DNA of 64,000 nt. Source: Solirubrobacteraceae bacterium (GTDB lineage Bacteria; Actinomycetota; Thermoleophilia; Solirubrobacterales; Solirubrobacteraceae). Location of the stretch: NCBI GenBank assembly GCA_049522915.1, contig JBEKNK010000001.1, forward strand, positions 4,052 through 68,051, in the 5' to 3' direction. The notes under the pieces were generated by a model. It saw only the letters and a list, made by a program, of their open reading frames with translations, ran no database searches and was not told the origin of the DNA. The stretch's first letter is position 1. Each line of letters starts with the position of its first letter. The position numbers and the translations under genes are program-made. Positions 12,514 through 14,692 of the stretch are shown in pieces.

Positions 12514-12894
12514 CTAGAGGAAGGCGATCCGGCCGGGCACCAGGGAGTCCTCGCTGGTCAGGAAAGCGGCGCAGGTGCGGTGGTATCCGTCGGCGATCTG
12601 GGCGACGACATCGGCGCGCAGCACGACGAGCAGGATCGGTGAGAGGGCCTCCTTGTCGCGCACCTTCGCCAGCTTCTCGGCCACCTCCTCGCTCTGCTTT
12701 GCGCTCAGCAACGGCAGCCGTGCGGCGCGCAGGATGTCCTTGGCCCGCCAGCGCCCGGCCGGAGCCTCGCGCAGCTGGGCGATCAGCGGATCGAGCTCCG
12801 CGGCGCCGACCAGCAACGAGAGGTAGCTGTGTGCAGCCGCGTAATCCTTGTCCTCGGGCTCGTCGAGCCACCTGACCTTCGGCGGGTCAGCCAC
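12514..12894 (-). CDS. hypothetical protein, third gene of the riboswitch-controlled operon
   Basis: 126 aa. Its start overlaps the stop of the sulfur-carrier gene by 8 nt. No family recognised. Confidence 0.5.
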   Translation of the reverse strand: MADPPKVRWLDEPEDKDYAAAHSYLSLLVGAAELDPLIAQLREAPAGRWRAKDILRAARLPLLSAKQSEEVAEKLAKVRDKEALSPILLVVLRADVVAQIADGYHRTCAAFLTSEDSLVPGRIAFL

Positions 12895-13162
12895 CCGCCA
12901 CCGCCGGCAGGATCGTGAGCTCCGCGCCGTCGGGAACCGCCGTCGCCACGCCGTCCAGGAAGCGGATGTCCTCGCCGGCGAGGTAGACGTTGACGAAGCG
13001 GCGCAGACCGCCCTGCTCGTCCGAGATCCGCTCGCGCAGCTCGCCGAACTGGGCGAAGAGTTCGTCGAGCACCTCGGACACCGTTGCGCCCTGGACGCTG
13101 GCGACGCTCTCGCCCCCCGTCGCCGAACGCAGTTGCGTCGGGATGCGGACCGTGACCGCCAT
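12887..13162 (-). CDS. MoaD/ThiS-family sulfur-carrier protein (C-terminal GG)
   Basis: 91 aa ending in AVAGG-stop, with beta-grasp length and pattern. Its ATG overlaps the TGA of the upstream ThrC-like gene (ATGA at 13160-13164). Confidence 0.8.
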   Translation of the reverse strand: MAVTVRIPTQLRSATGGESVASVQGATVSEVLDELFAQFGELRERISDEQGGLRRFVNVYLAGEDIRFLDGVATAVPDGAELTILPAVAGG

Positions 13163-14421
13163 CAGACGGCAACCGAGCCGAGCGCCGCCTCGAAGGCCTC
13201 GAGCGTCGGATCGATCTCGTGCGCCTGAAAGCTTCCGCGCACCGCGTCGAGCGTCTTCAGGCCGTCGCCGGTGATCACAAGCACGACCCGCTCCTGTGGG
13301 TCGATCTCGCCTCGCCGCGCAAGCTCGCTGAGCACCGCTACGCTGACGCCGCCGGCCGTCTCGGTGAAGATCCCGGTCGTCTCGGCCAGCAGGCTGATGC
13401 CCTCGCGGATCTGGTCGTCGGAGACGGCGTCCACGGCGCCACCGGTGCGGCGCGCGAGCTCGATGACATAGGGGCCGTCGGCCGGGTTGCCGATCGCCAG
13501 CGACTTGGCGATCGTGTTCGGCTTGACGGGCTGGCAGAAGTCCTGGCCGAGCGCGAACGCGTTTGCAACCGGCGCGCACCCGGATGCCTGAGCTCCGTTC
13601 ATGATCGGCTCGCGGCCCTCGACGAGTCCGAGCTCGATCCACTCCGCAAACCCTCGATGGACCTTCGTGAACAACGAGCCCGAAGCGATCGGGACGATGC
13701 AGCGGTCGGGCAGCTCCCAGCCGAGCTGCTCGACGATCTCGTAGGCGACGGTCTTGGAGCCCTCGGCGTAGTACGGCCGCATGTTGATATTCACGAACGC
13801 CCAGTCGTCATGCTCGGCAGACAGCTCGGTGCACAGGCGGTTGACCTCGTCGTAGTTGCCGCGCACGGACACCAGGTTGGTGCCGTAGACGCCGGTGCCG
13901 AGGATCTTCTGCTCCTCGAGATCTGCGGGGATGAAGACGTAGGAGGGCAGGCCGAGCGCCGCCGCCTGAGCCGCGACCGCGTTGCCGAGGTTGCCGGTCG
14001 AGGCGCAGGCGAGCGCGGCAAAGCCCAGCTCACGCGCGCGCGCGGAGGCCACGGCGACGACTCGGTCCTTGAACGAGTGGGTCGGATTGGCCGCGTCGTT
14101 CTTGACCCACACCTCGCGCAGACCGAGCCGCTCGGCCAGCCGATCGGCGTTGATCAGCGGTGTCCAGCCAGCCGGCAGCCCGGCTCGCGACGCCAGGTGG
14201 TTGGACGGTCCGGGCGGTCCGCCGGCCAGCGGCAGGAAGTCGGCGTAGCGCCAGACGTCCTGGGATCCACCCTGGATGCGTCGGCGCAGCGTCGCGACGT
14301 CACCGGTGAAGCCGTGCTTGTAACGAACCTCGAGCGGTCCGAAGCAGCGCTCACACACATAGAGCGCCTCGAGCGGGTACTCCGTCCCGCATTCCTTGCA
14401 CTTGAGACTTTCTGCCGCCAT
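13162..14421 (-). CDS. threonine-synthase-like PLP enzyme with N-terminal zinc ribbon (candidate MetM-type homocysteine synthase)
   Basis: 419 aa. CKECGTEYPLEALYVCERCFGPLEV zinc ribbon. NPTHSFKDR PLP-lysine motif and a TrpB/ThrC fold pattern. Preceded by a SAM-I riboswitch. Confidence 0.85.
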   Translation of the reverse strand: MAAESLKCKECGTEYPLEALYVCERCFGPLEVRYKHGFTGDVATLRRRIQGGSQDVWRYADFLPLAGGPPGPSNHLASRAGLPAGWTPLINADRLAERLGLREVWVKNDAANPTHSFKDRVVAVASARARELGFAALACASTGNLGNAVAAQAAALGLPSYVFIPADLEEQKILGTGVYGTNLVSVRGNYDEVNRLCTELSAEHDDWAFVNINMRPYYAEGSKTVAYEIVEQLGWELPDRCIVPIASGSLFTKVHRGFAEWIELGLVEGREPIMNGAQASGCAPVANAFALGQDFCQPVKPNTIAKSLAIGNPADGPYVIELARRTGGAVDAVSDDQIREGISLLAETTGIFTETAGGVSVAVLSELARRGEIDPQERVVLVITGDGLKTLDAVRGSFQAHEIDPTLEAFEAALGSVAV

Positions 14422-14476
14422 ATGAAAACCCTCCGCTGGTCATGTGGCGAAGGTTCTCAGGCAGAAGCTCCAACCA

Positions 14477-14582
14477 CATCTCCCAGGCCGTTGTTGGAGC
14501 CTGATGGAATTGGCACCGTTTCTCGCTTGCGCGAGATGGTTGCCGGGGTTTCATAGGGCCAGTCCCTCCACCCCTCTGGATG
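14477..14582 (-). promoter_or_regulatory. SAM-I (S-box) riboswitch aptamer
   Basis: Minus-strand RNA reads CAUCCAGAGGGGUGGAGGGACUGGCCCUAUGAAACCCCGGCAACC-AUCUCGCGCAAGCGAGAA-ACGGUGCCAAUUCCAUCAGGCUCCAACAACGGCCUGGGAGAUG. This matches the conserved SAM-I core, with P1 closing CAUC/GAUG. An SD (GGAGGG) and the ATG of the ThrC-like gene follow ~55 nt downstream. Confidence 0.85.
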
Positions 14583-14692
14583 CGTCCAGCTATGTACGCG
14601 CAAGTATAGCGGTGTGCAGGCCAGAAAACGACAGCCGGGCGCAACGCCCAACCAGCGCGGTAACGCGCCGGTCTGGGCGGTGTAGCAGAGAC

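Follow-up and report, generated by a model that had tools for sequence, protein, structure and literature searches.

A SAM-I riboswitch-led metM-metO-like operon predicted to make homocysteine from a protein thiocarboxylate in a Solirubrobacteraceae bacterium

A 64,000-nt stretch of DNA (GCA_049522915.1, contig JBEKNK010000001.1; hereafter the window, to whose positions all coordinates refer unless a contig is named) from a Solirubrobacteraceae metagenome-assembled genome (MAG) carries on its minus strand an operon consisting, in order, of an S-adenosylmethionine class I (SAM-I) riboswitch, a 419-aa pyridoxal phosphate (PLP) enzyme resembling threonine synthase (ThrC), a 91-aa ThiS/MoaD sulfur carrier and a 126-aa open reading frame (ORF3). 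We predict that the operon is of the metM-metO type and repressed by SAM, and that it encodes the Solirubrobacteraceae orthologue of the Streptomyces albulus thiocarboxylate route to homocysteine; we assign this reading a probability of roughly 0.87. The data presented here show the match to the RNA family, the families of the genes, the paralogy to ThrC, the conserved gene arrangement and which pathway genes are present or absent. The assembly (G000) comprises 2.99 Mb in 163 contigs, of which C3, C9 and C43 are named below, and is 91.5% complete with 70% G+C.

The riboswitch aptamer (P1-P4; 14473..14586, minus strand) matched RF00162 at 87.8 bits against a gathering threshold of 44.4 (E 1.8e-19; Infernal cmscan, Rfam 15), covering model positions 1-108 of 108. 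This score, twice the threshold, establishes the SAM-I aptamer that an earlier, sequence-only reading had placed at 14477-14582 on the same strand, essentially the same span. It was the sole Rfam match in the window and the sole copy of RF00162 in the whole assembly. The metM-like gene (13162..14421, minus strand) starts 51 nt after the aptamer ends, and its stop codon TGA overlaps the start codon ATG of the metO-like gene by a single base (TGATG, base 13162; metO-like gene 12887..13162, minus strand). The pair anticipated by the sequence-only reading, a ThrC-like enzyme followed by a 91-aa beta-grasp protein ending in GG, was therefore correct, but the 4-nt ATGA overlap it gave for the junction was not.

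The window enzyme matched PF00291 (PALP; 241.6 bits) and passed the NCBIfam thrC equivalog TIGR00260 with 271.5 bits against a cut-off of 167.1, and the closest solved structures are all threonine synthases. These matches, together with a Microcystis homologue with ThrC/deaminase activity in vitro (PMC12172450), would suit a second genuine threonine synthase placed under SAM control to balance the O-phosphohomoserine branch point, with the carrier an unrelated MoaD. We regard this as very improbable. The Streptomyces MetM orthologue also lies above the TIGR00260 cut-off (270.4 bits), so that this score does not separate MetM from ThrC. The genome, moreover, already holds a canonical operon on C3 composed of hom (434 aa; NF004976, 438.9 bits), thrC (342 aa; TIGR00260, 293.7 bits) and thrB (282 aa; TIGR00191, 194.9 bits). 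The product of this second, canonical thrC is about 36-39% identical to the window enzyme, depending on the alignment. No MetM-specific NCBIfam model was among the matches, and since MetM-type proteins exceed the thrC equivalog cut-off, they are uniformly named 'threonine synthase'.

In a maximum-likelihood tree (IQ-TREE, LG+C20) rooted on the CysM-like protein of the genome, the window enzyme fell inside a MetM-like clade (25 rows; support 97/94; branch length 1.0) that also includes the Streptomyces proteins linked to a riboswitch and a carrier. It fell outside the ThrC clade (6 rows; support 100/100), which contains the genome's own ThrC from hom-thrC-thrB and five proteins from loci with hom and/or thrB adjoining. 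A third group (support 99/99) is made up of three ThrC-like proteins of ~410 aa with an N-terminal ribbon (L142, L143 and L144, from genomes G028, G059 and G133), which show 33-37% identity to MetM and lack an adjacent carrier gene. Among 151 sampled Actinomycetota genomes, matches to the window enzyme were bimodal: ~66 genomes held a full-length match of at least 50% identity (at least 380 bits), and the next class reached at most 39% (at most 233 bits). All five genomes checked in both directions hold one ThrC-type gene, with 59-78% identity to the ThrC of the window genome, and one MetM-type gene. By tree and gene content, the window enzyme is a ThrC paralogue, distinct from the housekeeping threonine synthase of its genome.

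Compared with canonical ThrC (e.g., PDB 2ZSJ, 6CGQ, 1UIM, 2D1F), the window enzyme shares the fold, the PLP-lysine motif and the TIGR00260 pass, and presumably the substrate O-phosphohomoserine. It differs in its separate clade, its position outside a hom-thrB context, its control by SAM rather than by the threonine pathway and its extra N-terminal four-cysteine ribbon. This ribbon (CxxC...CxxC) consists of C8, C11, C23 and C26, which are invariant in the MetM-like set, and the catalytic-lysine motif SFKDR is invariant in the alignment. Cys282 was likewise found invariant in the MetM-like set, where GC stands in place of the GA of ThrC, and residues 72-80 of the window enzyme form a 9-residue insert (GPSNHLASR) that none of the 12 aligned relatives has.

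The pairing of enzyme and carrier is widely conserved. A carrier gene follows the enzyme gene at a distance of 0-290 nt at 24 of 29 phylum-wide loci and at 76 of 80 named genome loci (~100 of 109 together), and two of the four exceptions among the 80 are contig ends. Members of the MetM-like clade without an adjacent carrier gene are L036, L038, L040, L042, L047, L107 and L120. The last of these, from a Verrucomicrobiia MAG (DASXYX010000059.1), has RF00162 upstream (83.4 bits), but its 2.5 kb of downstream sequence yielded no MetO homologue. All 20 Solirubrobacterales loci and 13 of the 29 phylum-wide loci have RF00162 ahead of the enzyme gene, and it also occurs there at Miltoncostaeaceae, Acidimicrobiales and Verrucomicrobiia loci. 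A scan of roughly a dozen loci of the cyanobacterial type gave no RF00162 match, in agreement with PMC12172450. In one actinomycetotal genome (G093; L046:992-1315) the SAM riboswitch before metM-metO is replaced by a T-box leader (RF00230, 102.7 bits), in which AUG (Met) occupies the specifier position of the Rfam alignment, with C after it in place of the usual purine. This T-box is an independent regulatory pointer to methionine. Control by SAM riboswitches and, in one genome, by a Met T-box argues against a second threonine synthase, as do the separate clade on its long branch and the GG carrier in the operon at ~100 of 109 loci. The proposal of the sequence-only reading that the enzyme is a homocysteine synthase more likely than a ThrC is thus supported by the separate hom-thrC-thrB operon, the distinct clade and the riboswitch and carrier context.

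The 91-aa carrier matched PF02597 (ThiS; 51.1 bits) and NF041918 (SAMP1; 71.8 bits) and ends in PAVAGG directly before the stop codon. Among 100 homologues read to the stop codon, 81 end in AGG (VAGG or IAGG) and the rest mostly have one or two residues after GG. The match to the SAMP1 model, and the few clade members without an adjacent carrier gene, would be compatible with a homocysteine synthase that uses free sulfide directly, with MetO dispensable or serving, for example, SAMP-like protein modification. This too is improbable in our estimate: the metM-metO pairing is near-universal with the genes overlapping or closely spaced, the GG end is what adenylation requires, the genome encodes a rhodanese-domain E1, and the Streptomyces route is listed as dependent on the MetO thiocarboxylate in the summary of it given in PMC13759103.

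This E1 is found in trans. Four adjacent genes on C3 (C3:53579-56530; L016:5580-8531) encode an E1, a CysO-like carrier, a CysK/M-family enzyme and a JAMM protein. The E1 (393 aa; NF006444, 561 bits) combines an N-terminal rhodanese domain (residues 23-112) with a ThiF domain, and scored 364 bits with the MoeZ model NF005902, below the cut-off of 647. The CysO-like carrier is 47% identical to MetO and ends in GG-R, the CysK/M-family enzyme is CysM-like (TIGR01136, 349 bits), and the JAMM protein (Prok-JAB, 79.6 bits) carries the motif HSH...S..D. The absence of both an E1 and a JAMM protease from the operon, recorded by the sequence-only reading, is borne out, and we infer that the C3 proteins serve MetO. 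A NIL-domain partner was found neither in the operon nor elsewhere in the genome.

The presence of this cluster also bears on what the operon might make. A pair producing another sulfur amino acid, such as cysteate or, as with CysM/CysO, cysteine from O-phosphoserine, would be in keeping with the CysO/CysM-like logic of the operon and with a weak match of the enzyme to the cysteate synthase model TIGR03844 (67 bits, cut-off 324.9). It is, however, extremely unlikely, given that the genome already has the CysO-like/CysM-like/JAMM cluster, that the regulation is specific to methionine and SAM, and that the enzyme belongs to the ThrC lineage, with its gamma-phospho substrate, and not to CysK/M. 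The CysO/CysM/Mec/MoeZ system of Mycobacterium tuberculosis is alike in that a protein thiocarboxylate supplies the sulfur to a fold-type II PLP enzyme whose substrate is a phosphorylated hydroxy-amino acid. CysM of the CysK/M lineage performs a beta-replacement on O-phosphoserine, whereas MetM of the ThrC lineage would have to perform a gamma-replacement on O-phosphohomoserine.

No conventional source of homocysteine was recognised elsewhere in the genome. A search with PF01053 (MetB/C/Y/Z) returned at most 28 bits, to other aminotransferases, the MetX search at most 19.7 bits, and the searches for HTS/MetA and for MetE no match. The 91.5%-complete assembly thus yielded none of the metX, metY and metB genes, and both ThrB and MetH are present. 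MetH (TIGR02082) is encoded in two adjacent frames on C9, covering model positions 2-337 (C9:2205-3218) and 340-1182 (C9:3250-5775), which is either a naturally split gene or a frameshift. MetM/MetO therefore appears to be the only recognisable homocysteine source of this genome, subject to the missing 8.5% of the assembly.

The MetM/MetO route to homocysteine in S. albulus is credited to Hasebe et al. (2024; AEM 90:e0124724), as cited in PMC13759103 and bioRxiv 10.1101/2024.10.14.618325, where its components are given as MetM (A0A059WBP2), MetO (A0A059W7F4), Mec and MoeZ. The same two sources state that MetM is often misannotated as threonine synthase, and according to them the sequence-only reading is correct in naming a Streptomyces MetM/MetO route. 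A SAM riboswitch has been described upstream of S. albulus metM, with homologues in cyanobacteria (PMC12172450). The Streptomyces members of our set come from loci L039, L041 and L043, each with RF00162 upstream (76-78 bits) and a 91-aa carrier ending in PAVAGG directly downstream. The L041 protein exactly matches 'threonine synthase [Streptomyces sp.]' WP_383387389, which belongs to a cluster of 1037 sequences at 90% identity, in which the named members come from Streptomyces. The window enzyme has 54-56% identity to the Streptomyces proteins in this context, and the window carrier 52.7% identity to the Streptomyces carrier adjoining metM.

The window system and that of S. albulus share a ThrC-paralogous enzyme followed by a 91-aa GG carrier, a SAM-I riboswitch upstream, an E1 and a JAMM protein encoded elsewhere and, via the Streptomyces proteins, membership of the same clade. 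The window genome differs in belonging to another class (Thermoleophilia), in the N-terminal position of the rhodanese domain on its E1, in the translationally coupled 126-aa ORF and in the 9-residue insert of the enzyme. In addition, the searches of this genome revealed no MetX/MetA plus MetY/MetB route of the conventional kind, so that MetM/MetO may be its sole route.

In the pathway we propose, the homoserine kinase encoded by thrB on C3 would make O-phospho-L-homoserine, and the rhodanese-ThiF E1 of C3 would adenylate the GG terminus of MetO, leading to its thiocarboxylate. MetM, as a PLP enzyme derived from threonine synthase, would then eliminate phosphate and, rather than adding water at the beta carbon, would attach the sulfur of MetO to the gamma carbon. 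The JAMM hydrolase, acting like Mec, may assist in releasing homocysteine, which MetH would methylate to methionine. When abundant, SAM would bind the aptamer, and a downstream hairpin would bury the ribosome binding site and the start codon, and may also terminate transcription, turning the operon off.

The candidate for this hairpin is an expression platform at 14404..14470 (minus strand), in which both the Shine-Dalgarno sequence GGAGGG (14429-14434) and the AUG start (14419-14421) are paired and a short U-run follows the inner stem. Folding with ViennaRNA gave a four-helix junction for the aptamer alone (-50.1 kcal/mol) and -27.5 kcal/mol for the hairpin alone, and the minimum free energy structure of the leader retains the complete aptamer together with the hairpin. 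GGAGGG(UU) of the Shine-Dalgarno sequence is paired with AACCUUC, and the surroundings of the AUG with CUUCUGCC. In close relatives, an equivalent GC-rich hairpin carries GGAGG in its 3' arm, and 5-7 U separate it from the start codon; in more distant relatives a classic terminator stands detached. We therefore read the platform as probably a SAM-stabilised OFF state that would sequester the Shine-Dalgarno sequence and the AUG, possibly with some termination. The conserved CCAC(A) of the hairpin loop looks by eye as if it could pair with the 3' strand of P1, but the complementarity did not exceed that of shuffled controls significantly.

Like the SAM-I (S-box) riboswitches of Firmicutes and Actinobacteria, this one gives a full-length covariance-model match in the leader of a methionine-pathway operon. 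Unlike the classic terminator/antiterminator arrangement of Bacillus, the platform is 51 nt, with the Shine-Dalgarno sequence and the AUG inside the hairpin, and therefore looks like translational sequestration, possibly with an added weak terminator, the U-run of the window platform being U4 only. Only one terminator-like site was found near the leader (14632-14654); it is located upstream of the aptamer and does no better than chance. A strict sigma-70 promoter scan of the leader region found no promoter, so that a -10 box TATACT (14603..14608, minus strand), located by reading the sequence 17 nt upstream of the aptamer, is only a candidate.

Several points weigh against this interpretation of the operon. 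The cyanobacterial member of the clade from Microcystis reportedly acted as a threonine synthase/deaminase in vitro and did not raise methionine (PMC12172450), and given this member, function across the MetM-like clade is not uniformly established. The orthology to MetM is anchored on Streptomyces proteins identified by context and not on S. albulus A0A059WBP2. A metX/metY pair could lie in the missing 8.5% of an assembly of this many contigs. The test for an anti-sequestor or antiterminator helix gave a mean helix length of 6.54 nt against 6.16 nt in shuffles, which is not significant. Finally, the chemistry, the assignment of the E1 and JAMM proteins to MetO and the switching mechanism are our inferences, and the enzyme activity is a prediction from sequence.

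ORF3 (126 aa; 12514..12894, minus strand) starts 8 nt before the end of metO (GTGGCTGA). It lies within the span 12514-14582 covered by the sequence-only reading, yet was not described there. The protein carries a nearly invariant ADGxHR motif and belongs to no Pfam or NCBIfam family. Its own family comprises 3684 homologues in a large protein collection (805 clusters at 50% identity), all named 'hypothetical', with W9, D53-R56-A57 and A101-D-G-x-H-R106 nearly invariant. Four contigs from metagenomes or MAGs share the gene order PALP-ThiS-ORF3. In the sub-clade of the window, the order relA, DAGK-like gene, riboswitch-metM-metO-ORF3 and the 8-nt overlap are kept.

A role for ORF3 as a general accessory factor of the pathway was rejected. 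The family is sporadic, occurring in only 8 of 301 phylum genomes, with the copies of G045, G145 and G103 far from metM, and the window genome has its own paralogue adjoining an aquaporin gene (C43:20995-21339). The family was also not found in the same-genus genome G300. We therefore treat ORF3 as a passenger gene that would be co-transcribed under SAM control in this lineage. A reading in which MetM/MetO is the sole homocysteine route in this lineage and ORF3 is not a passenger but a new accessory factor of it, acting for instance in regulation or on the carrier, is in our estimate very unlikely.

Structural searches gave little more than a hint on the fold of ORF3. An AlphaFold2 model built with 30 close homologues reached a mean predicted local distance difference test score (pLDDT) of 48.5, too poor for a fold search, and a profile search of the PDB gave only a weak match to 2jpu/2q00 (E 0.014, rising to 0.36 with a broader profile). 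Pfam matches were sub-threshold only, to DUF1015 in 19 of 62 members (best E 0.0022) and in one case to DndB, located around ADGxHR. DUF1015 and DndB, which we take to be ParB/Srx-type families, would fit the motif and hint at a ParB/Srx-like fold.

The route was published in 2024 and has been included in GapMind 2026 (PMC13759103), so that the operon is a further example and leaves the published picture of the pathway unchanged. It adds modest extras: the genome apparently relies on this route alone, one relative has a Met T-box variant, the E1 carries its rhodanese domain at the N-terminus, and ORF3 is specific to the lineage. Its main value is for annotation. The enzyme and its relatives are all publicly named 'threonine synthase' and the carrier MoaD or SAMP1, and as a result of the former name, metabolic reconstructions of Solirubrobacterales and of many Actinomycetota (~44% of sampled genomes) would wrongly predict methionine auxotrophy. 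As MetM/MetO is apparently the only path to homocysteine in this bacterium, its methionine supply would depend on thiocarboxylate machinery shared with cysteine synthesis.

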